From a virus (lineage: Duplodnaviria; Caudoviricetes): a DNA stretch of 63,300 bases. The stretch is taken from positions 1 through 63,300 of IMG/VR virus record IMGVR_UViG_3300032280_000788, one strand, 5' to 3'. Below, piece after piece: positions 1 through 63,300 of the stretch (its first letter is position 1; each line of letters opens with the position of its first letter). The position numbers and the translations under genes were made by a program. A model generated the notes under the pieces. That model did not search any database and was not told the origin of the DNA. It saw only the letters and a list, made by a program, of their open reading frames with translations.

Positions 1-141
1 GCCGATCCACCTGCCGATCCACCTGCCGATCCACCTGCCGATCCACCTGCCGATCCACCTGCCGATCCACCTGCTGATCCACCTGCTGATCCACCTGCCG
101 ATCCACCTGCTGATCCACCTGCCGATCCTCCTGCCGATCCA
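1..141. repeat. 12-bp tandem repeat GCCGATCCACCT, ~12 copies (left end)
   Basis: Directly visible, with variants GCTGATCCACCT and GCCGATCCTCCT. The same unit closes the window. Confidence 0.98.
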
Positions 142-35655: not shown

Positions 35656-35730
35656 TGGAGCCCCTTGACGGAGTCGAACCATCATATCAAAATTACAAAT
35701 TTCGTGTAATAACCGTTATACTAAAGGGGC
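35656..35730 (-). tRNA. tRNA-Thr(UGU)
   Basis: Acceptor GCCCCTT/AAGGGGC + T + CCA; anticodon arm CGAAA-TTTGTAA-TTTTG; T-arm GATGG-TTCGACT-CCGTC. Confidence 0.9.
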
Positions 35731-52100: not shown

Positions 52101-55100
52101 AGGCCGAAGCAAAGGCCGAGAAGATCCTAGAAGAGAAAGGCTATATAGGTAAGCAGTTCCAGACCATGGGTCAGAAGCTCGGCTACGACGGAATCATTAT
52201 TGTGAACAACAATGGAGACGTGCTCGAGTTGGTCGCGTGGAGTCCGACATCGCTTAAGGATGGTTTCACAGACGCAAACATCGCACTTAGTCGCGCCGCG
52301 GTTAACGCTGGTGATGTAAAGTGGGATGTCGAAGGCATTGGGTCAACACCCACCCAAGCAGACATTAGTTATTTTGGTTTTGAGGTGCCGATGTTGCCGT
52401 CTGATTTTAGAAAGATGGTACCTAAAGGTGTTTCTGGCTCAGATACTAAAGAGTTTATTAAAAAGAAAATACAAGAGGGAGAAGCTATTGCGCCACCCTT
52501 CTTACGTGCGACATGGGACAAAGAACGTAAAGTATGGGTTGTTAATCCAGAAGAACACGAAGGTAGAAGCCGCACTGATGCTGCCGCTGAAATTGACCCC
52601 AGCGCACCAATGCCCGTGTCGATCATACTAAACAAAGGAATGCGAGCAAGAAGTCTTACAGATGAGATGCGTAATGCGCCTTTTGTTCTGGATAGTAATC
52701 TGGATGAAGTTGTATTTACACCAACACAAGCTGTCGCGCTTAGCAAGGCCGGGCTCGACACCGCGCCCAAGGCTTTCCGCGGCCGCATGGTCCAGCTGAC
52801 CCATTGGTCCAAGGCCACCGAGCTTAAGGAGACAGACCCAAGCGAGCACGGTAATGGTGGTGCTGGCAAAGAACTAGAGCGCCGCCGCGAGTACGGAGAC
52901 ATCTACATGCCGCGGACTTATTTCGGATACGACAAGTACCGCCGCGAGACTCAGGTTGGGGTCAACCGCTACAGCATGCTGGTTAACGGCGATACCCTGT
53001 ACGACTTGGACCGTGACCCACTAGACTTGTACCCGGACGCAGACGCCCTGCAGAAGGCTGGCTACGCTAGGTTCGATAACCGCGCTGCACTTACACTGCT
53101 CGAGAAAGCGGTTAAGGATGCAGGATTCAAGGGTTATGTTAGCACGTCTTACCAAGCCGGGGTCCTGTTCAATAAACAGAAGGTAACCAAGGTAAAGGAC
53201 GGCGACACTAGCTTGCCGCTGGCCGCACCAGCCAACATAGCCAAGAGCCCGCGCTACAGCAAGGCTCTGTATGCTATTACGAGCCCGCACGTTGAAAGCG
53301 CGTACGCGGTTAGCTTGGACGACCTGTTCATTAACAACGCCACCGGTGAATGGGACGCGGGTGGACCAGTTAGCCGCTTGTTCCGCGCCAGTGGAAACAT
53401 GGACCCTCGCTTGTTCGAGGCCGCCAAGTACCAAGAGCGTGGGTTGCGCCTTGCCAAGGCGCGGCTCAAGGATCTTACGCAAGCGTTCCAAGCCGCACTT
53501 AAGTCGGAACCAAACGCAGACTTGGACGACGTTAACTTGGCGCTCGGTAGCACAGAGCCAACCGTAGGCGCGGCGCAACGCGACGCTGCAGAAGCGGCCA
53601 AGCGCGCACGCATTGACAAGGCTAACGATGTATTTGATAGGGCCCCGGCAAACAAAGCTTACATGGACGCCGTCAATACGGCGCGTGCGAACTATAAGAC
53701 ACACCGCAGCAAACAAAAGTATACTGCAGAAGTTGAACAGGCTCGCGCTGATAGAAAAAATAGCCCAGAAATTCAGCAAAGGGACGCAGCAATTGCCGCG
53801 GCCGAGGCCCAGTACAGCAAGGATACCCAAGACGCGCGTGCACAAAACCTCGCGCCGGTACGCAAGGCGCAGCAGCAAGCACAGCTTAGGCTGGAGTTGA
53901 ACTCCCCGAAAACTGCAATTGCCATTGCCAATTTCCGCGTGGCCGTGGACAAGCTTAGCTCTGAACTTTCAGACGAGCTGGGCTCCGGTAATTCGCTTCG
54001 TGCAATTATTGACCAAAATCTTGGAGTCTATCTTACTCGCACATACCGCATCCATCAGGACGAAGGCTACGCGCAACGCGTACTGGAGGACAGCGAGTTC
54101 GCGCACCAGCGTGCGCTTGCCCGTAACTTCCTTGAGAAGAAGTGGATTGACAATACATACGAGCAGTGGCGCAAGGACGTTGCGTACGAGCCGTACACAG
54201 ACTCAGAAGTCATGTCGCTTGTGCGAGCTGAAGCGGCCTCCAAAGATGTTGGAACGCGAGAGCTCTACAAGTTTATTGACAAGCACAGCGCGACGCCAAA
54301 AGTATTTGGAAGAGCAACCAGCCGCACTGATCTTACAAGATTCATGCAGAAAGGTGAAGTGCCGCCGGAACTTCGAGTGCTGCTTGGCGAGGTACAGAAC
54401 CCAATTGAAAATGCGCTGCGCACTTACGGAAACCTCGCTCAGTTTCTTGGTACCCAGAGACTGCTCACGCAGTACACCAAGCTTGGCCTCGACAACAACT
54501 GGCTTGTAGCCGCCGAAGATGTGGAGAACGATCCAGTTAAGTACCGCGGGTATGCTCCGCTAGTAAGCACCACAGACACCAACGGCGGCGATCCACTATC
54601 CCAGTACTACGCGCAGCCCGAAGTTGTTTCTGCGTTCCAAACTATGTTCGCTCCGGCACCCGCTCCAGAAGGTAGCGATGCTAAAAAGGTTTGGGACTTT
54701 GTACAGCTTGGTGCTAGCAGAACAATTGGTGCCAGTATGGCGTTCCTTACACTAGGAAGCGCTGGCTTCTTTGTCCGCAACCTTGTGAGTATTCCAATCT
54801 TTGCGTCGGCTAACGGGTTTGTTCCTACGCCTAGCAACATTGTTACAGCGCTTAAAGGTATTAAACAAGTGTACGGCCGCGACATGGACGGACTCGGAGC
54901 CGACATGGTTATGTTGGGAATCTCTGAAGGCAGCATGGTTACACAAACTATGCGCGACTTTATCCGCGGAACAATTGACGACCCTGAGCTGATTACTAAT
55001 CAGATTGAGTCTATGCTCAAAGAGGTCGGCACCCCGGGCAACTTCCTTGCCAAGGCGTGGAAGGGCGCGAAAGTTACAGTCGATGGTCTTGCAACCCTTA

Positions 55101-56437
55101 ACGATCAAATTGATATGCTCTACAAGGCCGCTTACTGGGCGCACGAAGTTGATGTGCAGACCAAAGCTAACAAGTACAGGAGCGTTCCGCTAACACCACA
55201 GCAAATTAAGCAGGAGGCAGCGCGTGTTGTCAGGCTCACCACGCAGGGGCGCGAGCGCGTGGCTCCGATTGCTAAAGAGTTCCAACGCAGCGGGCTTGGC
55301 ATGCTGTTCAATAGCTTCTTCCGCTTCACCGCAGAAATGTTCCGCCTTCCAATCGCGACGATCCAGCTCGGAGTAGACGAAGTGAAGAGCGGAAACCCAG
55401 TGCTCGTGGCGAGGGGCCGTAACAGGCTAATTGGACTTGGCACTACTCTTTCTGTCCTTGGGTACGGTGCTCCGGCCCTGCTGAAAGAAATGTTTGAGGT
55501 CGAAGACGAGGAAGAAGAAGGTGTTCGGGCTGCTCAACCACCTTGGGCACGCGATTCCAACTTGTTCATTACATCAGACCCAGCGGAAGGAACAGTAACA
55601 ACATGGGATCTCACCTACATTAACGGATTTAGTCCGATCACAGACGCCGTCGGCCGCAGCATTCACCATGCAATCAACGGCCGCTGGGAGAAAATACCGG
55701 GGGTCATGGCTTCGTCCTTGGCAAAGAGTTTCCTGAGCCCTCAGATTGCAGTGGAGGCTTTCGCGCAGGCCGGTATGAACAGAGACGACCGCGGCGGTGC
55801 GCTGTGGTTGGAGGACGATTCATGGGGAACCAAAGTTGGCAAGACCCTGAAGCATGTGGCCAATAACGCGTTCAAGCTCCGCACCCCGTTCCAGCTCTGG
55901 AAAGCCTACGAAGCTTACACCAACGGCGGCGTCTACGACAAGGACGCACGCTTCGAGAAGGCCGCTGATCTTGTGATCAATGAGTTCAAGCCGTTCCGTA
56001 TTCATACCAATAAAACAGAACAGATGGCCAGACGCGCGTTCGGTGGTCTTAAACAACAAATGGACGCGGCCAGAGAAACTCTTGGTGAGCTTAAGAGCTA
56101 CGAGCAGCTAGACAAAAAGCGCGTGGACGAAGTTTATGATCGCTATGAAACATCGTTGATCGCGATTAACGAAAGGCTCAACAAGTACGCGGCCGGGTTC
56201 GGGAAGCTGGGAATGAGCTACGCTGAAATGGAAAGCCAAGCCGACGATGTGGGCATTAGCAAGCGTCGCTTCAAGGACGCCGTGCATTATGATCGGGTCG
56301 AAAGGTTTAAGCCTAGCGAAGACGCGTACAAGGACTACTTGCGCGTTGGCGGAGAAGAGAACGGTGCCGCGCGTGTGCAGTACCTTAACGAGGCCGTGTA
56401 CGCTAGGCCGCAGTACTTGAAATTAAACACAAAATAA
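43187..56437 (+). CDS. Giant polyvalent/internal virion protein (4416 aa)
   Basis: Uninterrupted ORF. Zincin HELGH (~47408); ADP-ribosyltransferase-like AFHGG...GSGYYVT...AKKYA...GYDGII...E (~51840-52260); LPD38-like C-terminus. Confidence 0.85.
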   Translation: MPQITKDPLGNDVELLNLTEWSDKNQKELNEDTLNQYAGYATGQFLRTGQKPEDFQDKLYSRLFQKGQQAGVFQPQDEAQTTQLFESFANKPLTDDAADLDLVSKSLLNTEPEKAARVADVYQRVKSGQPDPNLELDLEDVRKNIATPDVIQQARIGYAKERGLGFIDYPTGEPGKRDVWINTQATPDRKAVYDTLDLAQGIVDPRSAALAEEWIKTDPGRKVNRAEQRINSEIQSLLQERLSQSDPDSAFQQNMASAIEYATQSTEEFGTSVGAITKASTDRLAETKQVIVTPAAPVYAVKRVASNRVADAAIRSAYRNLKQTDPNNSLVTEFSEDQFTNAAQDYVLQRINTPTNQDDPTKNFVTLTDGTRAPLASAATLPKEKFNQAMDALGLDKQERAAASVIRTGWISANIKEITDALYDFESDEYVNFYEKNKDTYKNDVELTEAYLDQMKPDALKTFTAKTKGVGRSIPMAWGDLLFGAGAGASILVNSDAGEEFFTGLLTQNAEQEQRRGTYTKLYGSEMGLGYTLATQAAPLLADIAISRGAATLVKGGTKVAASANILARSAPVIGSTVRSAEDLMSKTAKTFIGNAIKPETKGFVSNYLKGFAVGGAEKSPAQILRAVRRDIEEKFVAGTARATQIGTGFARSAQGAYVNTSMGMRQETNPDGTPKYTEEQIKEAAITNALYSGGITALVEFGFGRVFGEGADVTAIGTANLRQIKSYSNRLTNALERGGFGGQELFDTVKQVSQEIVNKGWGDAVKQIPAEGLEEFTEEFTQNVVQNLLSDEQINFKQAFTQGLQAAVVGGVYGGAFGTTNKIGLRQADIARDTFAGTAQAIERDLMDRTVVKLQESGGSPQTIAALQDRMRVAQRRGQAISENIPVRAAKREIIDRLDATSEEPFEIPTAPAEPPAAKAPVTITRKAKKKAEELAVSEEELSLIQPSGTDKQGAPQITPNDVLAFVNRRTEQMGLDLNSLLPGPNITAPEGGFQLVGDEQADNPENRTFNDLSNRVVVIDGLRGRLRIEDEGVILDPEDGSTPFEVTPNKDLPVKDFEGFNTLLQEGAVVSPRRQAREVSEVTDGGQIVYGDTTYDLPEQPLIANVKKDDTGAVESMHMRVFNSKGLATWVYVAGDNVPKVETAYRTRGPEAVTNLASAVENAGRENTRRNIAAQTAKTKQSKQRRKDKRAKNNAPLVTDRGQRAAESAPDYRVANINKPNAPQQLVDEIRAVALQLGIDPEVFTDDAELFAMVAPDLAAGMDLETFTPQQKKQAIDNLLRNGNNPETLLEYLVSDELLPPVKRVERDSNLAALRARNSNQIRKHGIKPGADIKTVLESAARSATSKVHRQTAKELLMLGADSVPVSISYLPNNMGMAGAYLPQSNAVVINLASDNGGGALDALLHELGHAVTDRVVTAPRNDFEQQIRDRLMSLRAEYAERANAKYGNNMPPDLRYALEGRQRESEPFSELEGARELVAHFYGSARFREQLVELSPKGERNFVQKFIDLIASLFSGQPVASKQYKELAELIADLSKANQTIGANPYGRTVGRVAASRAGVNHENRVGPLFGVPNPHSRDDLEWILHQVQTLRYSDLSSEEINDIIVNQRFGMFTGENPNDTQFPEKENKEFNKKATQWLQDHGYQVIPIVGKYNRGENSFLVPGLTDQDAVDAANELVQDSVVTNTGMYFKGGMYHPRVGESINQPIGADDDFFSTLLDTNGDVTTIRVDYDFGTSLDSGIKYSKGDQQAAPVTKIARSLAAQGEFQVVEDREINKPMQFVDGRLAVNPALAEARYEAYDAEDTLDLQELDTRLAVAIGLANGSNGPDIQLSFEEVGLSPDSVIEQAAYNTLTNSDLQDLLKVKEQAKQFVASAYYHIALRNNGDNERLATAQNRVADLYRYLLRDGAGLPDAPEKFNALDISPVTMQLASRAASPAPIIRYSRAAVNIDPVQVRAQTKAGKAVGTRNPTSAKATEDGADPSNLVDLASLKRNPQAYRKNALLLLEYPIVAREFPELAKEYAEIRGAVLKEQDKAKANGIKITGAKDAAKKTLANYLGVTKAKVSGKMLEDAIENPESTFITKEQPGTIAGNKEARARNKALAEFNKNLDQIKKYEAEGAVLGTNSSKALKTYTDTLDKIAKDPEHPIAKQADEIYNTLIEVTKSNLRMLMDVFPSDIRDIANLWYDGANIIAQQFAGDNYSLEQSAAVLAVFSPQKDWFMNVELGKRTMEIWTADQEYEWDEAMSARWLMRGGEPELKENKDGTIGYAKGIKPDLDENGEHRTAENGMLLFHGWGSEKVKAKRQQAFERLQSLKGKKLKDLSTEQQAWFVRMRAETKYATSFPIVSPDGRFGTPSSSTNKKGVTKEIKLAWGTYGSIGKAIRILTAPPKTQMKVISDELGDQHKVRSFYNNIVDPQNADGHVTMDTHAIAALFWQAFSGNSREVGQNFGTANTATDSLTGVGGLYPAFAEAYRAVAAEYGMLPRQVQSITWEAVRMLFTARWKSKPENVNGVRAVWVRYQNNEITLEQAQTAVFAMATNGKDLATAVANSNDEELGLGFPSWADVTEGPAPAGVGIARSRALTQDDEAMFANSERRNTWSKAAKEFLGARVHPSEIPVIQGRYMRISDMPKALQDLATVAEVSKKLQRETDMAGNDILDIVTSPVETDTAWYDLDAAFRNKLRTEFDLRTQALDRIKKQTKGLYTDSEIITYAMNLPTVTDIEFEDTRIGIRLGVNLSIARSRAAQLDTDYLAAVEKGDTEAAQRMVDEALLDTDIIPTNLKRAFKSFWNAEGKINEAWNNPAQNAAKTRAAAKLTNQLDVQFENDMEASTRFWRNINELRRPVTYDAERNVIPLSKRFDLTKQDIRHSKATVATGQPYSTTAFHGGTYKQGVGALRPSKEGALGSGYYVTPSVDSAKKYAREGSLGAGVTGGSVSVFDVSLQNPLVFEYSQAYPANIFQALGVDPDKAEAKAEKILEEKGYIGKQFQTMGQKLGYDGIIIVNNNGDVLELVAWSPTSLKDGFTDANIALSRAAVNAGDVKWDVEGIGSTPTQADISYFGFEVPMLPSDFRKMVPKGVSGSDTKEFIKKKIQEGEAIAPPFLRATWDKERKVWVVNPEEHEGRSRTDAAAEIDPSAPMPVSIILNKGMRARSLTDEMRNAPFVLDSNLDEVVFTPTQAVALSKAGLDTAPKAFRGRMVQLTHWSKATELKETDPSEHGNGGAGKELERRREYGDIYMPRTYFGYDKYRRETQVGVNRYSMLVNGDTLYDLDRDPLDLYPDADALQKAGYARFDNRAALTLLEKAVKDAGFKGYVSTSYQAGVLFNKQKVTKVKDGDTSLPLAAPANIAKSPRYSKALYAITSPHVESAYAVSLDDLFINNATGEWDAGGPVSRLFRASGNMDPRLFEAAKYQERGLRLAKARLKDLTQAFQAALKSEPNADLDDVNLALGSTEPTVGAAQRDAAEAAKRARIDKANDVFDRAPANKAYMDAVNTARANYKTHRSKQKYTAEVEQARADRKNSPEIQQRDAAIAAAEAQYSKDTQDARAQNLAPVRKAQQQAQLRLELNSPKTAIAIANFRVAVDKLSSELSDELGSGNSLRAIIDQNLGVYLTRTYRIHQDEGYAQRVLEDSEFAHQRALARNFLEKKWIDNTYEQWRKDVAYEPYTDSEVMSLVRAEAASKDVGTRELYKFIDKHSATPKVFGRATSRTDLTRFMQKGEVPPELRVLLGEVQNPIENALRTYGNLAQFLGTQRLLTQYTKLGLDNNWLVAAEDVENDPVKYRGYAPLVSTTDTNGGDPLSQYYAQPEVVSAFQTMFAPAPAPEGSDAKKVWDFVQLGASRTIGASMAFLTLGSAGFFVRNLVSIPIFASANGFVPTPSNIVTALKGIKQVYGRDMDGLGADMVMLGISEGSMVTQTMRDFIRGTIDDPELITNQIESMLKEVGTPGNFLAKAWKGAKVTVDGLATLNDQIDMLYKAAYWAHEVDVQTKANKYRSVPLTPQQIKQEAARVVRLTTQGRERVAPIAKEFQRSGLGMLFNSFFRFTAEMFRLPIATIQLGVDEVKSGNPVLVARGRNRLIGLGTTLSVLGYGAPALLKEMFEVEDEEEEGVRAAQPPWARDSNLFITSDPAEGTVTTWDLTYINGFSPITDAVGRSIHHAINGRWEKIPGVMASSLAKSFLSPQIAVEAFAQAGMNRDDRGGALWLEDDSWGTKVGKTLKHVANNAFKLRTPFQLWKAYEAYTNGGVYDKDARFEKAADLVINEFKPFRIHTNKTEQMARRAFGGLKQQMDAARETLGELKSYEQLDKKRVDEVYDRYETSLIAINERLNKYAAGFGKLGMSYAEMESQADDVGISKRRFKDAVHYDRVERFKPSEDAYKDYLRVGGEENGAARVQYLNEAVYARPQYLKLNTK

Positions 56438-56442
56438 AACAA

Positions 56443-56474
56443 AAAAGCCCCGAGCTTAATTGCTCGGGGCTTTT
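56443..56474. terminator. Bidirectional intrinsic terminator
   Basis: AAAAGCCCCGAGC-TTAATT-GCTCGGGGCTTTT between convergent operons. Confidence 0.9.
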
Positions 56475-56477
56475 GGT

Positions 56478-56741
56478 TTAACGGCTTTCAAGTGTGGCCT
56501 GAAGCCATTCGTTCATTTCTGTAGCTAGCTCGGGCATATCAGGATACAGTGACCCGAACAGCTGGTGGATCTTTGATGAAACCTCTGGGTCAACCGCGGC
56601 GCTTGCGCTACGCATTGTTCCAAACTTTGTTTTGTAGAACACATAAAGGAATCCTGAGTCCTTGTGCAACTCTACGCAAACGCGGTCGTGGTTGGCTCGA
56701 TCAAAGAATAAATGACTAACAATACAAGTATCACGAATCAT
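56478..56741 (-). CDS. Hypothetical protein
   Basis: 87 aa; last gene before the terminator. Confidence 0.6.
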   Translation of the reverse strand: MIRDTCIVSHLFFDRANHDRVCVELHKDSGFLYVFYKTKFGTMRSASAAVDPEVSSKIHQLFGSLYPDMPELATEMNEWLQATLESR

Positions 56742-56826
56742 GGCAGTGACATAATGATGTCGTAAATAGTAGCGGTCACCCCGAACAGGGTGGCCGCTAC
56801 TGTTATATACAACAGGTGCATATTTT

Positions 56827-57072
56827 TTATGCTAGTTGTGGCTCTGGTGCAAAAAAGCGTTGCACCACTTGGCGGACAATGCCGCTATGCTTACCGCGGA
56901 CTTGCTCGAGGAAACCAGCGGCTTCTTCGGCGTCGTCCAAGGTCTTACTGCACACCCCGTTGCGGAGGAGGATTCCCCCGTTGCGGAGAACACAATAGGT
57001 TCCGTTGCGGCTATTCTCGTGGTCAGCGCGCTCTTGCGCGTTCAGTCTTGCGATGGTATTAATGTTTTGCAT
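56827..57072 (-). CDS. Hypothetical protein
   Basis: 81-aa ORF with an A/C-rich leader. Confidence 0.65.
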   Translation of the reverse strand: MQNINTIARLNAQERADHENSRNGTYCVLRNGGILLRNGVCSKTLDDAEEAAGFLEQVRGKHSGIVRQVVQRFFAPEPQLA

Positions 57073-57098
57073 AATATTAGTTGTAGTCGTTTTTGGGG

Positions 57099-57257
57099 TT
57101 AGTGGGGGGGAGTTGGTACAGAGTAGTCTTCCGCGACAAGGTTGTCCACAAAAATAAATTCTGGGTCTTGAATATGCAGAAGATCTACGAGGTGGTCAAT
57201 GCTGGGGACCTGCTGGAGGTCCCCTGTTATGGTGGTGGTTAGTGTGTTGCCGATCAT
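57099..57257 (-). CDS. Hypothetical protein (52 aa; not in the ORF track)
   Basis: MIGNTLTTTITGDLQQV...; ATGA overlap. Confidence 0.5.
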   Translation of the reverse strand: MIGNTLTTTITGDLQQVPSIDHLVDLLHIQDPEFIFVDNLVAEDYSVPTPPH

Positions 57258-57490
57258 GGGATTCCTCTGGTGTTGATTTTACCACTCAAGTACGCGAGTT
57301 CCAGCGCTAAATTTAGCGCGTCGGTTTCGTTAATTGTGTGGCAATCTATTCCGTACTTTTCACACAACGGCATATCCAGTGTTTCGGTGTACGCTAGCCA
57401 GTTACGAATGGTCCTAACTTCGGCGGCTCCGTCGGGGCTATGCACGACCCGAACCGCGGGGTTCAGCGTGGACGCATAAATAGTTTTCAC
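57254..57490 (-). CDS. Hypothetical protein
   Basis: 78 aa; GTGA overlap. Confidence 0.6.
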   Translation of the reverse strand: MKTIYASTLNPAVRVVHSPDGAAEVRTIRNWLAYTETLDMPLCEKYGIDCHTINETDALNLALELAYLSGKINTRGIP

Positions 57491-57579
57491 AATGATGCTG
57501 GGGGGCTGGGGTCGTTTGGATCATTGCACATTAAAACTATTACAAGCACGATTAGTATGACAAACAAACTTGTGATCAT
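57487..57579 (-). CDS. Small single-TM peptide (30 aa)
   Basis: MITSLFVILIVLVIVLMCNDPNDPSPPASL; overlaps neighbours at both ends. Confidence 0.55.
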   Translation of the reverse strand: MITSLFVILIVLVIVLMCNDPNDPSPPASL

Positions 57580-57710
57580 GATTTTTTGAATAGTAATAGG
57601 TCTCTTCCAATCACCAAAGGAGTTGGTCTGCTTAAGGTTTTGCGCCCATTTTTTATTAGGTAAATGAAAGCGGCCTCTTGCGCCTTTAGTCTGCGTTCTG
57701 TGTATGTCAT
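57576..57710 (-). CDS. Small basic protein (44 aa; not in the ORF track)
   Basis: MTYTERRLKAQEAAFIYLIKNG...; ATGA overlaps at both ends. Confidence 0.5.
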   Translation of the reverse strand: MTYTERRLKAQEAAFIYLIKNGRKTLSRPTPLVIGRDLLLFKKS

Positions 57711-58282
57711 TTTTTGTAGCGGTTAGGGGTTTTCTTTTTGAACAACTCGAGCAGTTGTGGGACCAGCTCCCACTCCACGGCCAGCACGCAGTGATCGTGC
57801 AGGTCAAGGAACGCGCAGTGCTTAAGGTTATTCTGTTGCAACCAGAACGCCACTTGGTCCGATACCTCCGGCGACGACGCATCGTGGCTCCAAGGGAGCG
57901 TTACGCTCTTCTGGTACCGCGGCAAGGTCACCTTGACTCGGGTTGGGTAGTTATCTGTTGCGGGTAGCGTGCGGCAAACGACCGCGACTAGGTGTGTTAT
58001 GTTGTTATTCACTTTCTTTGTTTCTATTTTTTGTTTAACGTCCCAGACCGCGGGCTCGACTGGTTTCGAGACTCTGGATTCTGGAGACAGGATTTGTGTG
58101 TCGTTCGGCAGTTCGTTGTTGTACGCCTCGAGCGCGCTCGCGTCGCTGGACGCGCGCACCAACTTTCCGGTGGGGAAACACTGGTAGATTGAATTGGTTG
58201 GCTCCCCAGTAACAGGGCACCAACCATCCACATTCGATTTGCCGACAAGGATTGCTGTGGTTGCTTGTATTTTTGCTTTCAT
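57707..58282 (-). CDS. Hypothetical early protein
   Basis: Contains an LPATDNYPTRVK motif; start taken at ATG 58282. Confidence 0.65.
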   Translation of the reverse strand: MKAKIQATTAILVGKSNVDGWCPVTGEPTNSIYQCFPTGKLVRASSDASALEAYNNELPNDTQILSPESRVSKPVEPAVWDVKQKIETKKVNNNITHLVAVVCRTLPATDNYPTRVKVTLPRYQKSVTLPWSHDASSPEVSDQVAFWLQQNNLKHCAFLDLHDHCVLAVEWELVPQLLELFKKKTPNRYKK

Positions 58283-58284
58283 AA

Positions 58285-58926
58285 TTACCAAACATTTAGT
58301 GCTTTGAGCGCCGCGGCGTCGCGATCAAGAAAGGCTGGCCAAGCATGCTCGGCAAGTTTATTCAGCAAGTCTTTGGCGTTGCCGTTGGCGAACAGGACTG
58401 CGGTGGGCTGGACCTTCCACGGGTTGGGCTGTAGTCCGTTCCACGCGGCGTTGGCCAGCGGGTCCACGCTTAAGACTGGCGGCTTGGATAGCAGGCGGCC
58501 AGCGTGCTTGCCGTTCGAGGCCAGCGAGCGCCACACAGCCTCGATCTCGGAGTCGGTAAGCTGTGCGCGTTGGGCAATGGCTTTGACTATTTGACCGATC
58601 TGATCGCGGTCCACGCGAGCGGGTCGTTGCGGGGCGGGCGGGGCTTCCAGCGTTACCGGATCAGGAGCCGCTGGCGCGCTTTGAATGCGGGCTTGGACCC
58701 GTTCGACTCCGAACTGCTGGAGCACCTCGCGCAGGGCTTGCTCGGCCGCGGCCTTGGTCGGGCCCTTGGCGATTACCTGCCCGCAACGGGGGCTCGTAAC
58801 TGCCCAGCCCTTACCCGTTACCGAGCGGTGCAAGACCGCCGTGATTGGGGCGTCCAAAAGTAGGCCCCTGACCTTATAGAATCGGCCTTGTGAATAGGCT
58901 ACTGGTGTTTCTGTTTCTGTGTTCAT
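58285..58926 (-). CDS. Hypothetical early protein
   Basis: 213 aa ending DRDAAALKALNVW. Confidence 0.7.
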   Translation of the reverse strand: MNTETETPVAYSQGRFYKVRGLLLDAPITAVLHRSVTGKGWAVTSPRCGQVIAKGPTKAAAEQALREVLQQFGVERVQARIQSAPAAPDPVTLEAPPAPQRPARVDRDQIGQIVKAIAQRAQLTDSEIEAVWRSLASNGKHAGRLLSKPPVLSVDPLANAAWNGLQPNPWKVQPTAVLFANGNAKDLLNKLAEHAWPAFLDRDAAALKALNVW

Positions 58927-58946
58927 TGTTTTCTATTGGTTTGTGT

Positions 58947-59195
58947 TTAGACCACGAGGTCGATTCCGGCCAAGTGTAGCGATCGGAACTTTTGCTCGCC
59001 GCGGTCATCAATATCCCACGCGCGGACCACCGCGTAGCGCACGCCTTTCTTGCTAAACGCAACGCGGTTGACTTGGTCGATTTTGAATACTCGGACGCCG
59101 GTATTTGTCTGCCGCGAATCGAGCGCGATGTACCGAACAGTGCGGCCTACGAGCTCGCTTATGATTCTTTCAGTGCTTTTTGTTGTTGTTGTCAT
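58947..59195 (-). CDS. Hypothetical early protein (SH3/WYL-like beta fold?)
   Basis: ATG follows the conserved leader of hammerhead A; ends WDIDDRGEQKFRSLHL. Confidence 0.7.
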   Translation of the reverse strand: MTTTTKSTERIISELVGRTVRYIALDSRQTNTGVRVFKIDQVNRVAFSKKGVRYAVVRAWDIDDRGEQKFRSLHLAGIDLVV

Positions 59196-59221
59196 TGTTG
59201 TTGGAGCGGATTGGTTGGCTT

Positions 59222-59283
59222 CCGCGACCGCCCCGCCGAAGCGGTTTGGTTTCGACCCCAAGCCAACGGGTCTCATCAGGCGG
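59222..59283 (-). ncRNA. Type I hammerhead ribozyme A
   Basis: CCGC-CUGAUGA-GACCC/GGGUC-GAAAC-stem III (UUCG)-GUC^GCGG. Confidence 0.9.
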
Positions 59284-59430
59284 TTAACCGCGGTACTCTT
59301 CGTACGCGTCCTTGAGCTTATGCTTTATTAGATCAAACCGAACATCCTCAGTGTCACCAGCGACCAACTCAAGTAGGTCTCTCGCGATAGTGTAGATTTC
59401 CAGTACATTTTCGTCTTTCGTTTTTTCCAT
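59284..59430 (-). CDS. Small acidic protein (48 aa)
   Basis: MEKTKDENVLEIY...EEYRG, between hammerheads B and A. Confidence 0.65.
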   Translation of the reverse strand: MEKTKDENVLEIYTIARDLLELVAGDTEDVRFDLIKHKLKDAYEEYRG

Positions 59431-59455
59431 ATGTTTAGAGCGGATTGGTTGGCTT

Positions 59456-59517
59456 CCGCGACCGCCCCGCCGAAGCGGTTTGGTTTCGGCCGTTGCCACA
59501 CGGCCATCATCAGGCGG
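59456..59517 (-). ncRNA. Type I hammerhead ribozyme B
   Basis: CCGC-CUGAUGA-U-GGCCGU/ACGGCC-GAAAC-stem III-GUC^GCGG. Confidence 0.9.
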
Positions 59518-59809
59518 TTGGGTAACTTATGCCCTCGGGCAAGTCGTCCACAAGTATGATGCGGACTCCGGTGGCCTGCTCGAGCGTCTGGACAAGGCCG
59601 CGGATGCTGGTGCATGTTTCGCGAACATTGACCCAGTGCTCGGCGGTATCGCGGCCCCAGAAGGTGCGCTCGACGACCTCGTCACCATTGCGTATGCGCT
59701 GGTGCGCGAAGTCCCTGTGGTTGCCGCTGTATGGGGACTGCAGGAACAGGTCATAGGTTGGCGTGAAAGCGTCCTCGAGGGACAGCACATGTGATGTTTC
59801 TGTTTTCAT
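59510..59809 (-). CDS. Hypothetical early protein
   Basis: 99 aa; its stop is the UGA of the hammerhead B core. Confidence 0.7.
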   Translation of the reverse strand: MKTETSHVLSLEDAFTPTYDLFLQSPYSGNHRDFAHQRIRNGDEVVERTFWGRDTAEHWVNVRETCTSIRGLVQTLEQATGVRIILVDDLPEGISYPTA

Positions 59810-59812
59810 TGT

Positions 59813-60016
59813 TTAGTAGTGGGTTAAGTGGGTGATGTGGCTCTTGTAGAAGCCGCCTTGGTTGTACCATTGCAGGGTGCACTCGCCGTTGCTGTAGATC
59901 TCGACCAGTCGCCCGAAGCGGACCGGATAGAAGACCCCCTCAACGCGTTCTTTGGGCGGCGGCGGTAGAATCCTATAGGATTCTCCAACGCATAGTTTTA
60001 TAGGGATGTTTGTCAT
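59813..60016 (-). CDS. Hypothetical early protein (67 aa)
   Basis: ATG follows the leader of hammerhead C. Confidence 0.65.
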   Translation of the reverse strand: MTNIPIKLCVGESYRILPPPPKERVEGVFYPVRFGRLVEIYSNGECTLQWYNQGGFYKSHITHLTHY

Positions 60017-60042
60017 TTTTGTTGGTGCGGATTGGTTGGCTT

Positions 60043-60104
60043 CCGCGACCGCCCCGCCGAAGCGGTTTGGTTTCGGCCGTTGCCACACGGCCATCATCAG
60101 GCGG
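60043..60104 (-). ncRNA. Type I hammerhead ribozyme C
   Basis: Identical to copy B over the core and stems. Confidence 0.9.
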
Positions 60105-60107
60105 GGT

Positions 60108-60341
60108 TCAGCGCACCTTGAGGCTGTCAAGGTGCTCGAGCGTCTCTGGGTCGAAGTGCAACACATGGTTGCGGAACTCGGGGCCCAGCTTGTACGCGCC
60201 GTGGTGCGCTTGCTCTTCTTGCTCGGCCGTGAGGCCGGACACTTTCCACCCGGGAGGCAAGCCGCGCGGGTGAACAACGATTCGCGGGCCTTGCCCGCAG
60301 TAGTCTTGTAGCAGGTATGCTTTCATGGTTTCAGGATTCAA
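60108..60341 (-). CDS. Hypothetical early protein
   Basis: 77 aa from TTG 60341; ATG 60326 is an alternative start. Confidence 0.6.
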   Translation of the reverse strand: MNPETMKAYLLQDYCGQGPRIVVHPRGLPPGWKVSGLTAEQEEQAHHGAYKLGPEFRNHVLHFDPETLEHLDSLKVR

Positions 60342-60532
60342 GGTTCAGGGTTCGGATTGGGTGGTAGCTCGTCGTACGGGTCGTGCGGTAGCTCGTCGTA
60401 GTCTGGGTCGTGCGGTAGCTCGTCGTAGTCTGGGTCGTGCGTGTAGCTTGGCTGGCAGGCCGGACAACTGGTTTTGCAGTCCGGCCACCAACGGCTACCG
60501 CACAAGGTGCAGGCGAATGGTGCAGTTTTCAT
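60338..60532 (-). CDS. Zinc-finger protein with three HDP(D)YDELP repeats (64 aa)
   Basis: CTLCG...CPAC followed by 27-bp tandem repeats. Confidence 0.6.
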   Translation of the reverse strand: MKTAPFACTLCGSRWWPDCKTSCPACQPSYTHDPDYDELPHDPDYDELPHDPYDELPPNPNPEP

Positions 60533-60636
60533 CAGTGCAACAGGTGGCGGAGTAGGATTGCGGCCGCGATAAAAGCGGCCCCGCAAAGGGCGGAAATGCA
60601 AACGCCCAGCCAAATTGGTGGTTCAGGTATCTTCAT
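60532..60636 (-). CDS. Small single-TM peptide (34 aa; not in the ORF track)
   Basis: MKIPEPPIWLGVCISALCGAAFIAAAILLRHLLH; start/stop overlaps on both sides. Confidence 0.6.
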   Translation of the reverse strand: MKIPEPPIWLGVCISALCGAAFIAAAILLRHLLH

Positions 60637-60965
60637 TGTTCGGTGGTGGTTGATGGGCAGGCTCGCCCACGCCAGTTGTTGTAGTGCTCGTCGGTGGCCG
60701 CGTCAAGCGCGGGGTGGACTGTGTAGTCCGCCACCAGCTCTGCGGGTTCGTTCCCAAGGACGATGTACGCAGTGACGCGCGAGCCGTCGGTGTGGGCGAG
60801 CCGCACATGGCTTTCGTCGGTGGCGGTTATTTCGGCCACCGCAATCGCGATGGTGGAGGTGCTGACCCAGCCGTCGCCGTTGTTCACGGCGAGGGGCTCG
60901 AGCCCGTGTTTTTCAGCCGTGCGCAGGAAGTCGCGCACGGGGGTTGACCAGTTGTATTTTTTCAT
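60633..60965 (-). CDS. Hypothetical early protein (110 aa)
   Basis: ATG follows the leader of hammerhead D; VLGNEPAELVADY motif. Confidence 0.75.
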   Translation of the reverse strand: MKKYNWSTPVRDFLRTAEKHGLEPLAVNNGDGWVSTSTIAIAVAEITATDESHVRLAHTDGSRVTAYIVLGNEPAELVADYTVHPALDAATDEHYNNWRGRACPSTTTEQ

Positions 60966-60991
60966 TGTTTTTGGAGCGGATTGGTTGGCTT

Positions 60992-61043
60992 CCGCGACCC
61001 CTTGCGGGGTTTCGGCCGTTGCCACACGGCCATCATCAGGCGG
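60992..61043 (-). ncRNA. Type I hammerhead ribozyme D
   Basis: Same core; minimal stem III AC-CCC-GCAA-GGG-GU with a GNRA loop. Confidence 0.92.
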
Positions 61044-61125
61044 GGGGGGTGCGCGCCTCGCGGCCTGCGCCTGCTCTTACTCCTCCTCGGGTTGGGCGCG
61101 TGGCGCGTTCGATTCCTGGGTTCAT
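61036..61125 (-). CDS. 29-aa peptide with an RGGVRAGAGR motif (not in the ORF track)
   Basis: ATGA overlap upstream; its stop is the UGA of hammerhead D. Confidence 0.45.
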   Translation of the reverse strand: MNPGIERATRPTRGGVRAGAGREARTPPA

Positions 61126-61361
61126 GCTGTTGCGAGTTTGCTGAGTTTTGCCACGGCATCACGGATGCCGCCGTAGCCACTGTACGATTTCCCGCCGATT
61201 GGATCGGCACGGTCGATTGCATACCAGTCGCAGACGCTGGTGTATTTGCGGAGTCCGCATCCGGCGCGTTCGCTGATTGTCTTGCGCGTCACTTGGATGT
61301 TGTAGGAGTCCGTGATGTAGACCGCTGTGCCTTTGAAGCTGCTGATTTTGGTTGCTTTCAT
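61122..61361 (-). CDS. Hypothetical early protein (79 aa)
   Basis: ATG follows the leader of hammerhead E. Confidence 0.65.
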   Translation of the reverse strand: MKATKISSFKGTAVYITDSYNIQVTRKTISERAGCGLRKYTSVCDWYAIDRADPIGGKSYSGYGGIRDAVAKLSKLATA

Positions 61362-61387
61362 TGTTGTTGGAGCGGATTGGTTGGCTT

Positions 61388-61454
61388 CCGCGACGACCAG
61401 CACCCCGAAGGGGCTGGTCGTTTCGGCCGTTGCCACACGGCCATCATCAGGCGG
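61388..61454 (-). ncRNA. Type I hammerhead ribozyme E
   Basis: Same core; stem III GACCAGC-CCC-UUCG-GGG-U-GCUGGUC. Confidence 0.92.
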
Positions 61455-61866
61455 CTTGGCGCAGGCGGCGCGCGATGTGGCTCGCGCTGGTGCCTGCTAT
61501 GCTTTCGACCAGTCTGCCGCTGTCGCGGGTGGCGGTCCAATATACACCGGAGCCCTGCCCAGTCGCTCCGGTGAACCGGAAACGCCAGCTAGGAAACAGC
61601 GCGGTGAGAGCCGCGTGCTCTGCCCACTCAACGCTGTGGCCCACGGCAATATTCTCTATCCATGCGTCAGCGGCTCGTTGTGAGCGGCTACAGGCCCAGC
61701 GCAGGCCGCTTTGGTAAGCGTCAGCGTTTATGCTGGGGTGCAGGTACCAAGTGGACCTATGGGCGGCGGAGTGGATGACTAGGCCGCCGCGGCTCTTAAG
61801 AGCGGAGCAGGGTCTGTACGGGTGATTGGTTGGTTCCTTACGATTTTGGAATTGTGTTTGGCTCAT
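61447..61866 (-). CDS. Hypothetical early protein (139 aa)
   Basis: ATG follows the leader of hammerhead F; stop lies in the hammerhead E core. Confidence 0.65.
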   Translation of the reverse strand: MSQTQFQNRKEPTNHPYRPCSALKSRGGLVIHSAAHRSTWYLHPSINADAYQSGLRWACSRSQRAADAWIENIAVGHSVEWAEHAALTALFPSWRFRFTGATGQGSGVYWTATRDSGRLVESIAGTSASHIARRLRQAA

Positions 61867-61892
61867 TATTGTTGGAGCGGATTGGTTGGCTT

Positions 61893-61959
61893 CCGCGACG
61901 ACCAGCACCCCGAAGGGGCTGGCCGTTTCGGCCGTTGCCACACGGCCATCATCAGGCGG
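61893..61959 (-). ncRNA. Type I hammerhead ribozyme F
   Basis: As copy E with an A-U to G-U change in stem III. Confidence 0.92.
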
Positions 61960-62116
61960 CGTTGAATCTGTTAACAATGTTCTGAAGTTCGGCCCTGTAG
62001 TCGTCGCCACATTCGGACCCGAAGGATTCAAGGTCGTCAATGAGTCCACTCGCGAGGGCTAGCAATTCGGCCACGCAATTGGTGGCCACATCAATGGTTG
62101 TGTCAATTTTGTTCAT
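61952..62116 (-). CDS. Small acidic protein (54 aa)
   Basis: ATG follows the leader of hammerhead G; stop lies in the hammerhead F core. Confidence 0.65.
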   Translation of the reverse strand: MNKIDTTIDVATNCVAELLALASGLIDDLESFGSECGDDYRAELQNIVNRFNAA

Positions 62117-62142
62117 TATTGTTGGTGCGGATTGGTTGGCTT

Positions 62143-62208
62143 CCGCGACGACCAGCACCCCGAAGAGGCTGGCCGTTTCGGCCCTTGCTACGGGGCCTCG
62201 TCAGGCGG
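62143..62208 (-). ncRNA. Type I hammerhead ribozyme G
   Basis: CCGC-CUGACGA-GGCCC/GGGCC-GAAAC-stem III-GUC^GCGG. Confidence 0.92.
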
Positions 62209-62620
62209 GTTGTACAGCGGCAAGGAACGCCTCGTCGCTGGCGCCATTGGCTCGGGCGGCATCGAGCGCAACCTTGAGTTCGGCCGCGGCCTGCTCGAAT
62301 GTGACGAACAGGCTGTGCTTGTACTCGTATCCCTGCGGGTTTGGCCCGTCCAAGCGGCCGCGGCTCGAGGCCTTTTCGAGGACCGCGATCGAGTCCTGCT
62401 GAAGCACCACCGCGAGGTGGTGCGCGTGCCATCCGTCGGGGGCAAACCCTACCACAACAAGCGTGGGTTGCGGCTGGCCTTCCCACTCGCTTTCGTGCAG
62501 GATCGAGGCGTGAGCCTCAAAGCCCGTTGCGGCGAGCGCGGCGGCGGCGTCTTTACGGATGATTCTCTCGCCAGTCTTTTCGACCAGCAAGCCGATATTT
62601 AACTCGATTTCCTTTTTCAT
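62201..62620 (-). CDS. First early gene; possible SAM lyase-like protein (139 aa)
   Basis: LNIGL...W.G...PTLVV...LA..L.QDSIAV resembles phage SAM lyases; stop lies in the hammerhead G core. Confidence 0.55.
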   Translation of the reverse strand: MKKEIELNIGLLVEKTGERIIRKDAAAALAATGFEAHASILHESEWEGQPQPTLVVVGFAPDGWHAHHLAVVLQQDSIAVLEKASSRGRLDGPNPQGYEYKHSLFVTFEQAAAELKVALDAARANGASDEAFLAAVQPA

Positions 62621-62625
62621 TTTTT

Positions 62626-62712
62626 TGGTGCCCTCTGCCTTGGCCAGACTTGGGACTGGCACCGCGCGGCTTGCACCATTGCAGGCTTGTTCGCGGTGGT
62701 GGCATTGCACCA
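62626..62712 (-). ncRNA. Type P1 twister ribozyme
   Basis: P1 UGGUG/CACCA; C^AA; P2 UGCC/GGCA; T2 AC/GU; P3 CACCGCG/CGCGGUG; P4 CCAG/CUGG; L4 UCCCAAGU; 3' GAGGG (T1). Confidence 0.88.
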
Positions 62713-63169
62713 TGGCCCGTTACACTGCGGGCCAAAGATCGGGGACTGGGAAAGAACTGGGACCACCGCTTGGAACTCGCCGCCGGACCCCGTGCTGGGG
62801 CGGCGGCCGATCCGCTTTTGTGGGTGACCTTGCGGCCAACGAAAATCAATGTAGGGCAGGATCCGTTTTTGTCACCAACTTTTTTCGGAAAAGTTTGCAG
62901 GGTAGCACAAAACCCCTTGTTTTATAGCTTATTGACCCCGAAAATATTTTTCAAGAAAATGTCAAAAAGATGTTTTGTATACGCTTTTTTGCGAACTACT
63001 AGGAGTTTAGTATTTGAGCGAAATGTCGTTTTGTATACACCGCCAGAGCAAAGCAGGATGGTTGCATTTTGCGCAACTTTCCTGCGCCTAGCAACCAGCA
63101 ACCAGCGCCAAGACTACACTCGCCAAGTGTAGCGTTTCGGGAGCGTGTACCACCAGCCAACCAGCCCGG

Positions 63170-63300
63170 GCCGATCCACCTGCCGATCCACCTGCCGATC
63201 CACCTGCCGATCCACCTGCCGATCCACCTGCCGATCCACCTGCCGATCCACCTGCCGATCCACCTGCCGATCCACCTGCCGATCCACCTGCCGATCCACC
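63170..63300. repeat. 12-bp tandem repeat GCCGATCCACCT, ~11 copies (right end)
   Basis: Perfect copies running to the end of the window. Confidence 0.98.

Follow-up and report, generated by a model that had tools for sequence, protein, structure and literature searches.

Predicted type I hammerhead ribozymes that share stop codons with upstream genes in a gene array of a tailed phage

Results

Organization of the array

The DNA analysed here is the whole of IMG/VR virus record IMGVR_UViG_3300032280_000788 (positions 1 to 63,300, that is 63,300 nucleotides, hereafter the window), a complete 63.3-kb tailed-phage sequence with terminal repeats, whose proteins include DNA polymerase, helicase, exonuclease, terminase and tail proteins. 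Our subject is a gene array towards its right end, where the minus strand carries every gene between 57 and 63 kb and a repeated element resembling the hammerhead ribozyme separates single genes or small gene blocks. The pattern CTGANGA-N(8-38)-GAAAC has seven matches in the window, all on the minus strand and with the C of the core at positions 62204, 61955, 61450, 61039, 60100, 59513 and 59279; shuffled sequences are expected to give 0.82 matches, and none of 100 shuffles reached seven. The units (HH7 to HH1) and the genes that they delimit (from g1 onwards) are listed here in the order in which they are met along the minus strand.

62627 to 62711, minus: twister-P1-like element, head of the array, with 6 nt between its end and the first ATG
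62201 to 62620, minus: g1, 139 aa, ending QPA-UGA on the HH7 core; dN/dS 0.25 and 0.23
62127 to 62208, minus: HH7, 85.4 bits; 5' strand of stem I CCGC at 62208-62205, core CUGACGA at 62204-62198, predicted cut between 62147 and 62146, alternative hairpin at 62146-62127
61952 to 62116, minus: g2, 54 aa, ending NAA-UGA-UGA on the HH6 core; dN/dS 0.27
61877 to 61959, minus: HH6, 89.5 bits; core CUGAUGA at 61955-61949, predicted cut before 61896
61447 to 61866, minus: g3, 139 aa, ending QAA-UGA-UGA on the HH5 core; dN/dS 0.27 and 0.22
61372 to 61454, minus: HH5, 91.4 bits; core at 61450-61444, predicted cut before 61391
61122 to 61361, minus: g4, 79 aa, gene found in the window only, with its own TGA 86 nt before the HH4 core
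61036 to 61125, minus: open reading frame (ORF) of 29 aa, doubtful as a gene, ending PPA-UGA on the HH4 core
60976 to 61043, minus: HH4, 95.3 bits; core at 61039-61033, short stem III with GCAA loop, predicted cut before 60995
60108 to 60965, minus: block g5-g8 (110, 34, 64 and 72 aa) with overlapping or nearly overlapping stop/start joints; the TGA of g8 (60110-60108) lies 3 nt before the stem I CCGC of HH3 (60104-60101)
60027 to 60104, minus: HH3, 92.0 bits; core at 60100-60094, predicted cut before 60046
59510 to 60016, minus: g9 (67 aa, own TAA) and g10 (99 aa), the latter ending PTA-UGA-UGA on the HH2 core with its stop at 59510; dN/dS of g10 0.30
59440 to 59517, minus: HH2, 93.6 bits; core at 59513-59507, predicted cut between 59460 and 59459, alternative hairpin at 59459-59440
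59284 to 59430, minus: g11, 48 aa, whose own TAA (59286-59284) abuts the stem I CCGC of HH1 (59283-59280); dN/dS 0.32
59206 to 59283, minus: HH1, 76.2 bits; core at 59279-59273, predicted cut before 59225
58947 to 59195, minus: g12, after the predicted HH1 cut and a 30-nt leader

Where the array has no hammerhead between two genes, they overlap or nearly do so (ATGA, TGATG, or 3-9 nt). The array genes are kept in related phages with 57-98% identity and are under purifying selection (dN/dS 0.10-0.42). Searches of these genes against Pfam and PHROGs gave no function, only one weak match to a PHROG of unknown function and two sub-threshold Pfam matches; g1 has no Pfam match and one weak PHROG match.

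The element at the head of the array matches RF03160 over the full length of the model, with 44.5 bits and E=1.6e-7, which is below the gathering score of 67.2; we call it twister-like and not a member of twister-P1. Similar elements (38-45 bits) also head the arrays of the four related virus records described below. If cut, it would leave a folded twister at the 5' end of the first mRNA.

The repeated units as type I hammerheads

Read as RNA, each unit runs in the order CCGC, CUGA(U/C)GA, a hairpin of 5-6 bp, GAAA, a second hairpin, GUC, GCGG-AAGCCAACCAAUCCGC, 10 nt and AUG. The second hairpin is closed by a UUCG loop where its stem is long or of 3+4 bp, and by a GCAA loop where the stem has 5 bp; within the window, stems II and III occur in three versions each. 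All seven units have the layout of a type I hammerhead: stems II and III are closed by loops, stem I is the open one, and CUGANGA lies on the 5' side of the cut. The predicted cut separates the C of GUC from the first G of GCGG and falls 30 nt before each next start codon. In folding predictions, stems II and III form hairpins.

The core C3-U4-G5-A6-N7-G8-A9 plus G12-A13-A14 (eleven core positions) is found in 7 of 7 window units and is invariant in 29 related sequences; the cleavage triplet is GUC in every window unit, and the A15.1-U16.1 pair is present in 29 of 29. Over these 29 distinct units, taken from the window and the four related records, the three helices are 94.1% paired, compared to 21-44% when the partners are slid, and five pairs have changed on both sides, giving a covariation score that none of 500 shuffles matched. 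Across a larger set of 114 distinct relatives all invariant core positions are retained, and stems II and III change by compensatory substitutions. Five window units and 79 of the 114 relatives carry an extra U between A9 and G10.1; an additional base after A9 is known in natural hammerheads from the viroid literature. Loop II reads GGC in 100 of the 114 distinct units and faces a GCC of the tail, which was itself fixed by the search pattern, and some loops (UAGC, UCGC) mismatch. The arrangement, seven units in 3 kb with each delimiting one to four genes, fits the pattern of clustered phage hammerheads, as it does in the four related records. Judged by sequence, the units thus belong to a known ribozyme class, the type I hammerhead, in a known kind of arrangement.

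Further along the minus strand, at 58182-58219 and inside a 191-aa gene, lies a leader-like remnant (GGGAGCCAACCAAT..., repeat family D6) that matches the model weakly, at 13 bits, and may be an eighth unit in decay.

Relatives in other genomes

To find relatives, public collections were scanned for segments of the 3' tail, and the matches were filtered with a covariance model (R1) and regular expressions. Since this selection acts on the 3' side of the element, the counts of upstream stops given below are unbiased by it. Seven of eight records searched had a match, and the four with hammerheads that we used for comparison contain six (G001), seven (G002), seven (G003) and six (G004) of them; a further record (G005, locus L014) has a DNA pattern match and no covariance-model match. 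Among the matches listed for metagenome and genome contigs, 206 loci (L054-L259) were screened and at least 22 had a hammerhead by regular expression; loci L361-L417 were screened by regular expression and not by the model. The script could not resolve 17 of 134 model matches as hammerheads, and these were dropped. The resulting sample, among the matches listed, comprises 162 hammerheads whose 4-bp stem I is paired throughout and 114 distinct cores, which fall into two subfamilies, one with the AAGCCA tail of the window and a larger one with a GAGCCA tail. When the tail pattern was searched in genome contigs, one of 86 stretches passed the hammerhead expression, in an atypical core context that looks like chance, and no prophage or host was found in this way. 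Of 20 sequencing runs listed for the window, none is recorded as RNA, and most contain a small share of it.

Seven viral contigs of gut type (L275, L298, L328, L337, L340, L319 and L346) each have 4-6 model matches within a few kb, so that arrays are not limited to the lineage of the window. The cultured Faecalibacterium phage FP_Brigit has one unit of the GAGCCA subfamily (L260, 1495-1564, minus strand, 57.4 bits) in an unannotated gap; the annotated coding sequence upstream of it ends TAA-CCC-GCC-UGA, and a GCGGG...CCCGC hairpin follows the predicted cut.

Stop codons inside the ribozyme core

Five ORFs of the window, those ending at 62201, 61952, 61447, 61036 and 59510, close with xCC-GCC-UGA, in which the UGA is U4-G5-A6 of the core. 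An earlier note, made from the letters of the window alone, had listed these endings, and we mapped the same five stops, of which the one at 61036 belongs to the doubtful ORF of 29 aa. We also recovered its second in-frame UGA in four of the five, at the CTGATGA cores of 61955, 61450, 61039 and 59513 (the core at 62204 being CTGACGA), and its two other upstream ORFs that stop 0 and 3 nt before stem I, with the TAA at 59284 and the TGA at 60108, respectively. The 29-aa ORF overlaps the stop of the 79-aa g4 (ATGA) and is rich in Arg, Gly and Ala, and neither of the two has a homologue in the related arrays. The HH4 junction is counted here as an own stop 86 nt upstream, which leaves four solid shared stops among seven junctions.

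The four solid ORFs (g1, g2, g3 and g10) are 72-98% identical to their relatives, with dN/dS of 0.22-0.30 in the frame that ends on the core, and each starts with an ATG exactly 30 nt past the previous predicted cut or 6 nt past the twister-like element. Stem I fixes the last two codons, and the five window ORFs end in QPA, NAA, QAA, PPA and PTA, that is with Thr, Ala or Pro followed by Ala. Relatives with the AAGCCA tail also end in Ser-Ala, Phe-Ala, Ser-Val and Pro-Thr; those of the GAGCCA subfamily, where a fifth pair needs CCC, end mostly in Pro-Ala. Orthologues hold the core stop while their final residues drift (QAA, QTA, RTA and KQSA in one case, NFA versus NFESA in another). It is the type I layout that makes this possible: with CUGANGA placed 5' of the cut the stop stays on the upstream product, while in the known type II and III permutations the core lies 3' of the cut and a shared stop would be severed from its ORF.

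At HH7, which has a single UGA, the frame after the stop remains open for 29 codons (62116-62203, minus strand) and is in frame with the ATG of g2. Read-through of this UGA on uncut RNA would fuse g1 and g2.

In order to count stops across the family, upstream ORFs were chosen automatically as the longest open frame and clustered by blastp into 62 protein clusters. The automatic choice misassigned some junctions, such as the 59279 unit and its counterpart in G004, which were corrected by hand; the cluster counts keep the automatic choice. The core UGA terminates 24 of the 62 clusters (20 of 51 with a strict ORF filter), 11 of 25 with the AAGCCA tail and 13 of 35 in the other subfamily. The remaining 38 clusters have a stop of their own, at -8 (4 clusters), -9 (9), -10 (7), -11 (2), -14 (1) or farther (15); stops tend strongly to sit as near the ribozyme as stem I allows.

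The earlier note had proposed testing whether the GCC-UGA frame is preserved among homologous arrays more often than one time in three. This is the case, with 36 of 62 clusters in that frame (frame 0; binomial p=5.6e-5), but the excess does not discriminate between explanations, because it comes entirely from genes without an own stop, and such genes can survive only there: the other two frames are open through the GC-rich ribozyme into the next gene, as the long read-through ORFs listed for the window show. Own-stop clusters are spread evenly over the three frames (12, 12 and 14). The tandem UGA is no commoner among core users either, since N7 is U in 28 core users and 31 own-stop cases and C in 21 and 25, respectively.

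A second partner for the 3' strand of stem I

The GCGG that follows the predicted cut has two possible partners: the CCGC in the last codons of the upstream gene, giving stem I, and another CCGC located 6-14 nt further on. A CCGC 9-34 nt after GCGG occurs in 100 of 129 distinct tails, compared to 16.5% of random 25-nt windows, and in 78 of 90 GCGG units of a second set. Stem I itself exists in four covarying versions, and all three strands change together: CCAC/GUGG/CCAC is found in one lake-type lineage of the window's subfamily and in three of four gut-type GUGG variants, and CCCA/UGGG/CCCA in three lineages, while one CGGG variant pairs only in part.

Plain minimum free energy folding selects the downstream hairpin in all four window units folded. 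When each pairing was enforced, the energies, which leave out tertiary contacts, were lower for the downstream hairpin: by 1.2-1.7 kcal/mol in HH4-7, and by about 6 kcal/mol in HH1-3, where the upstream CCGCC has stem III as a further possible target of invasion. The simplest role for the hairpin would be that of a 5'-terminal structure formed once the 4-bp stem I falls apart, which would make the cut irreversible and shield the 5'-OH. Such a layout would in addition let the ribozyme respond to whatever conceals the upstream strand, in the first place a ribosome at termination.

Turnover of junctions and cassettes

Comparison of related arrays shows that shared stops were created repeatedly and independently. 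In one ortholog set, two contigs use an own stop at -25 and a third uses the core stop, the difference being a 25-nt deletion. The 139-aa g1 of the window corresponds to a 224-aa relative but lacks its C-terminal part, and it is joined to its hammerhead at CCC-GCC, where the long relative reads ...CCC-CCC-AAA / CCA-GCC-AAG at the same place.

Whole cassettes delimited by hammerheads also vary in presence and order between related phages. A 97-aa gene precedes the g5-g8 block in G001 and follows it in G003, genes of 57, 107, 62, 51 and 123 aa are present in only some arrays, and g11 is missing in G001. In the window, the HH5 unit that precedes the window-only g4 is 98% identical to the HH6 unit over 98 nt (repeat family D4), a duplicate that spans GCCGCC, the ribozyme and the leader, up to AUGA. 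The earlier note had described the element as a portable module of stop, cleavage site and leader that could make a captured ORF expressible; the cassette turnover, the D4 duplicate and the g1 junction, all comparative evidence, support a unit that may travel with new ORFs and express them. We also considered whether the units could have arisen as mobile elements of the MITE type; nothing pointed to such an origin, target duplications not having been searched for, and the idea was set aside.

Other features of the window

Both ends of the window (1-141 and 63170-63300) consist of about 11 copies of a 12-nt unit, GCCGATCCACCT. The direct terminal repeat recorded for this genome is this tandem-repeat block, which may be genuinely terminal or may result from the assembly having wrapped around. 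An ORF of 4416 aa on the plus strand (43187-56437) adjoins the array and, with matches to DUF7178 and DUF3293 and a sub-threshold match to ART-PolyVal, encodes a polyvalent protein. Inside g7, 3.3 copies of a 27-nt repeat (60363-60448, minus strand) encode a peptide repeat like HDPDYDELP, after a Cys-rich N-terminal half.

A scan of the whole window with Rfam at gathering thresholds gave a single match, a tRNA. A tRNA-Thr at 35656-35730 (minus strand) was called by both ARAGORN and Rfam. ARAGORN also called a tRNA-Ser(tga) at 58646-58723 on the plus strand, antisense to g13, which is absent from Rfam both at the gathering threshold in the window and at E<=10 in 56000-63300, and is probably a false call.

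Discussion

With moderate confidence, we read the region as an array of ribozymes that make transcript ends, in which the sharing of stop codons is driven by packing. It would be an early-gene array, transcribed leftward from the right end of the genome as one long RNA, which the twister-like element and the seven hammerheads would cut into single genes or small coupled blocks; we infer every step after transcription. An ORF that enters the element as xCC-GCC-UGA would be terminated by the core itself, and its stop would remain on the upstream product. After the predicted cut, the upstream mRNA would end in stems II and III with a cyclic phosphate, and the downstream mRNA would begin at GCGG, which would fold onto the downstream CCGC as a 5'-terminal hairpin, with the fixed 30-nt leader, which lacks a Shine-Dalgarno sequence, preceding the next AUG. 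Each cistron would gain structured, protected ends, as may be compared with the RNase III sites of T7 early mRNAs. Stop sharing would mainly be an outcome of tight packing and in-frame junction formation: own stops crowd against stem I, a deletion that loses an own stop would be tolerated in no frame but that of the UGA, which would then be kept as the working stop. At a shared stop and at an abutting one alike, a terminating ribosome would sit over the 5' strand of stem I, and it may shift the balance between the two pairings.

Several observations weigh against this account. No hammerhead family was found at E<=10 when 56000-63300 was scanned with Rfam, and a direct search with RF00163 (Hammerhead_1) gave 16.2 bits on HH1 only and missed the other six units, the cut-off being 34. 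That cut-off is the operational threshold of a 45-position model and not a structural criterion, and the low score is probably the price of a stem I that is open and has only 4 bp, together with the long stem III and the extra U. With so short a stem I, and with the inactive pairing favoured by the nearest-neighbour model, activity would need a tertiary contact, for which the loop II GGC and the GCC of the tail are the candidate partners. Among the own-stop clusters, 15 of 38 stop more than 14 nt from the core, although some of these distant ORFs are probably miscalled. The downstream CCGC is absent from 29 of the 129 tails, and one GUGG variant has no downstream partner. The comparison of g1 with its long relative is unrooted, so that the gene could have been shortened or extended, either way. 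Finally, packing alone leaves the conservation of the downstream copy of the stem I strand unexplained.

An alternative, which sharpens the earlier note's inference that cleavage may depend on translation of the upstream gene, is that the ribozyme is gated by translation; this is physically reasonable, but we consider it unlikely. A ribosome terminating on the core or just before it would hide the 5' strand of stem I, GCGG would pair downstream (off), and cleavage would take place only once no ribosome occupies the stop region. Processing, and with it what becomes of the downstream cistron, would then report translation of the upstream one, and this coupling would select shared or abutting stops. 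From the geometry of the ribosome footprint, a ribosome at such a stop would cover the 5' strand of stem I. Stops on the core or at most 14 nt away are found in 47 of the 62 clusters (24 + 23), and own stops cluster at the nearest position that spares stem I, yet the 15 distant own-stop clusters and the 86-nt spacer of the newest window cassette do not follow this rule, and tight spacing is general in this genome, where junctions without a hammerhead overlap (ATGA). The lack of enrichment of the tandem UGA among core users and the uniform frames of the own stops also count against gating. The two mutually exclusive pairings of GCGG, both conserved and both covarying, and near-equal in energy in four of the seven window units, speak for a switch, but the alternative hairpin is explained equally well as a cap formed on the 5' end after cleavage, against religation and nucleases. 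In its fullest form, which seems to us distinctly doubtful, the proposal is a two-state device: the 3' strand of stem I would pick either its partner in the last codons (active) or the downstream copy (inactive, and later the 5' cap), and the terminating ribosome would decide on cutting. If true, a self-contained module of 90 nt, which also supplies the stop and the next leader, would tie the processing of early phage mRNA to translation. The production of transcript ends and gating by ribosomes are not mutually exclusive.

It is very improbable that the units are inactive, either relics or repeats that act as DNA (recombination sites, promoters or terminators) with incidental TGA triplets and ORF ends. 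Such a reading would account for Rfam hammerhead models staying below threshold and for seven copies with a conserved 30-nt leader that appear to mediate cassette exchange. However, the invariant core positions are intact in all seven units and in the 114 distinct relatives, with compensatory changes in stems II and III, and stem I covaries in four versions, a pattern expected of an RNA fold and not of a DNA site; furthermore, the subfamily also occurs in single copy in other phages, including the cultured Faecalibacterium phage. We give almost no credence to the remaining possibility, that the shared stops are artefacts of calling non-genes or the wrong frame: among the five ORFs, the one of 29 aa at 61036 is unlikely to be a gene, and some longest-frame choices across the family were wrong and corrected by hand (for example at the 59279 unit), but g1, g2, g3 and g10 start 30 nt past the previous cut or 6 nt past the twister-like element, have homologues 72-98% identical with dN/dS of 0.22-0.30, and have orthologues that keep the core stop despite changing last residues, so that this reading is already largely refuted.

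Whichever way the ribozymes are used, this widespread type I subfamily, with at least 114 distinct cores, offers a concrete handle on the function of ribozymes in phages. Ribozyme, stop codon and C-terminal residues overlap in one short stretch, which holds the end of a protein, an RNA structure and a predicted cutting site. The alternative pairing is conserved and covarying, hence open to mutation and assay, and the single related unit in a cultured Faecalibacterium phage makes bench tests possible. The array also illustrates how short ORFs, placed between RNA modules that stay fixed, can be exchanged or trimmed and still be expressible.

Clusters of this general kind have been described before. 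Perreault et al. 2011 (PMC3088659) report hammerheads in series between short, variable phage genes: clusters flank single prophage genes, 2-kb transcripts were cut in vitro, cleavage in vitro is given for three such clusters in bacteria, the ribozymes are type I forms with pseudoknot contacts of loop II, and cutting into gene-length mRNAs was proposed. Our array resembles theirs in these respects and, compared with the clusters in the main text of that paper, differs in its seven units, fixed leader, twister-like head and stops shared at four of seven junctions. The expression "stop codon" has no occurrence in that main text, the available passages describe no competing stem I hairpin, and the supplementary alignments of PMC3088659 may include members of the present subfamily. 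The available text of a 2019 review (PMC6765202) notes twister and hammerhead ribozymes near each other in bacterial and phage DNA, much as two self-cleaving classes stand side by side in the phage-like neighbourhood studied here; it suggests processing of polycistronic mRNA, calls the function of these ribozymes in bacteria and phages unresolved, and has no occurrence of "stop codon". A preprint (bioRxiv 10.64898/2026.03.05.709948) remarks that CUGAUGA holds two UGA triplets, as part of a speculative argument on the origin of the code; the portion available presents no real gene terminated by a ribozyme core, unlike the window genes. In a 2026 study of ribozymes in RNA viruses (PMC13725137), matches in DNA phages were set aside, according to the available part. 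The pseudoknot hammerhead of PDB 8YDC (PMC11300833) was considered as the closest match and rejected, as in the description available its helix II is replaced by a pseudoknot, which is a different architecture.

In the literature searched, with most subscription journals outside it, neither the termination of genes by a hammerhead core nor an alternative stem I hairpin turned up. Phage hammerhead arrays are already known; judging from the available portions of these sources, the recurrent sharing of stops and the covarying alternative hairpin of stem I are the traits that appear undescribed.

Two further systems offer analogies. In T7, early transcripts are cut between cistrons by RNase III, and hairpins at the new ends stabilise the mRNAs. 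By analogy, the window array would also be a polycistronic early phage transcript cut between cistrons with hairpins at the ends; the T7 sites, however, need a host enzyme and lie in spacers, whereas the element of the window is predicted to cut itself and overlaps coding sequence and stop codon. In synthetic insulators of the RiboJ type, a hammerhead followed by a hairpin is placed upstream of the ribosome binding site. The window units would similarly strip the upstream context and place a hairpin at the new 5' end before the start region, and the array can be viewed as the natural equivalent of such insulators. In RiboJ, an engineered construct, hairpin and stem I are not in competition, whereas in the window units the 3' strand of stem I also serves as a strand of the hairpin, and the two covary.

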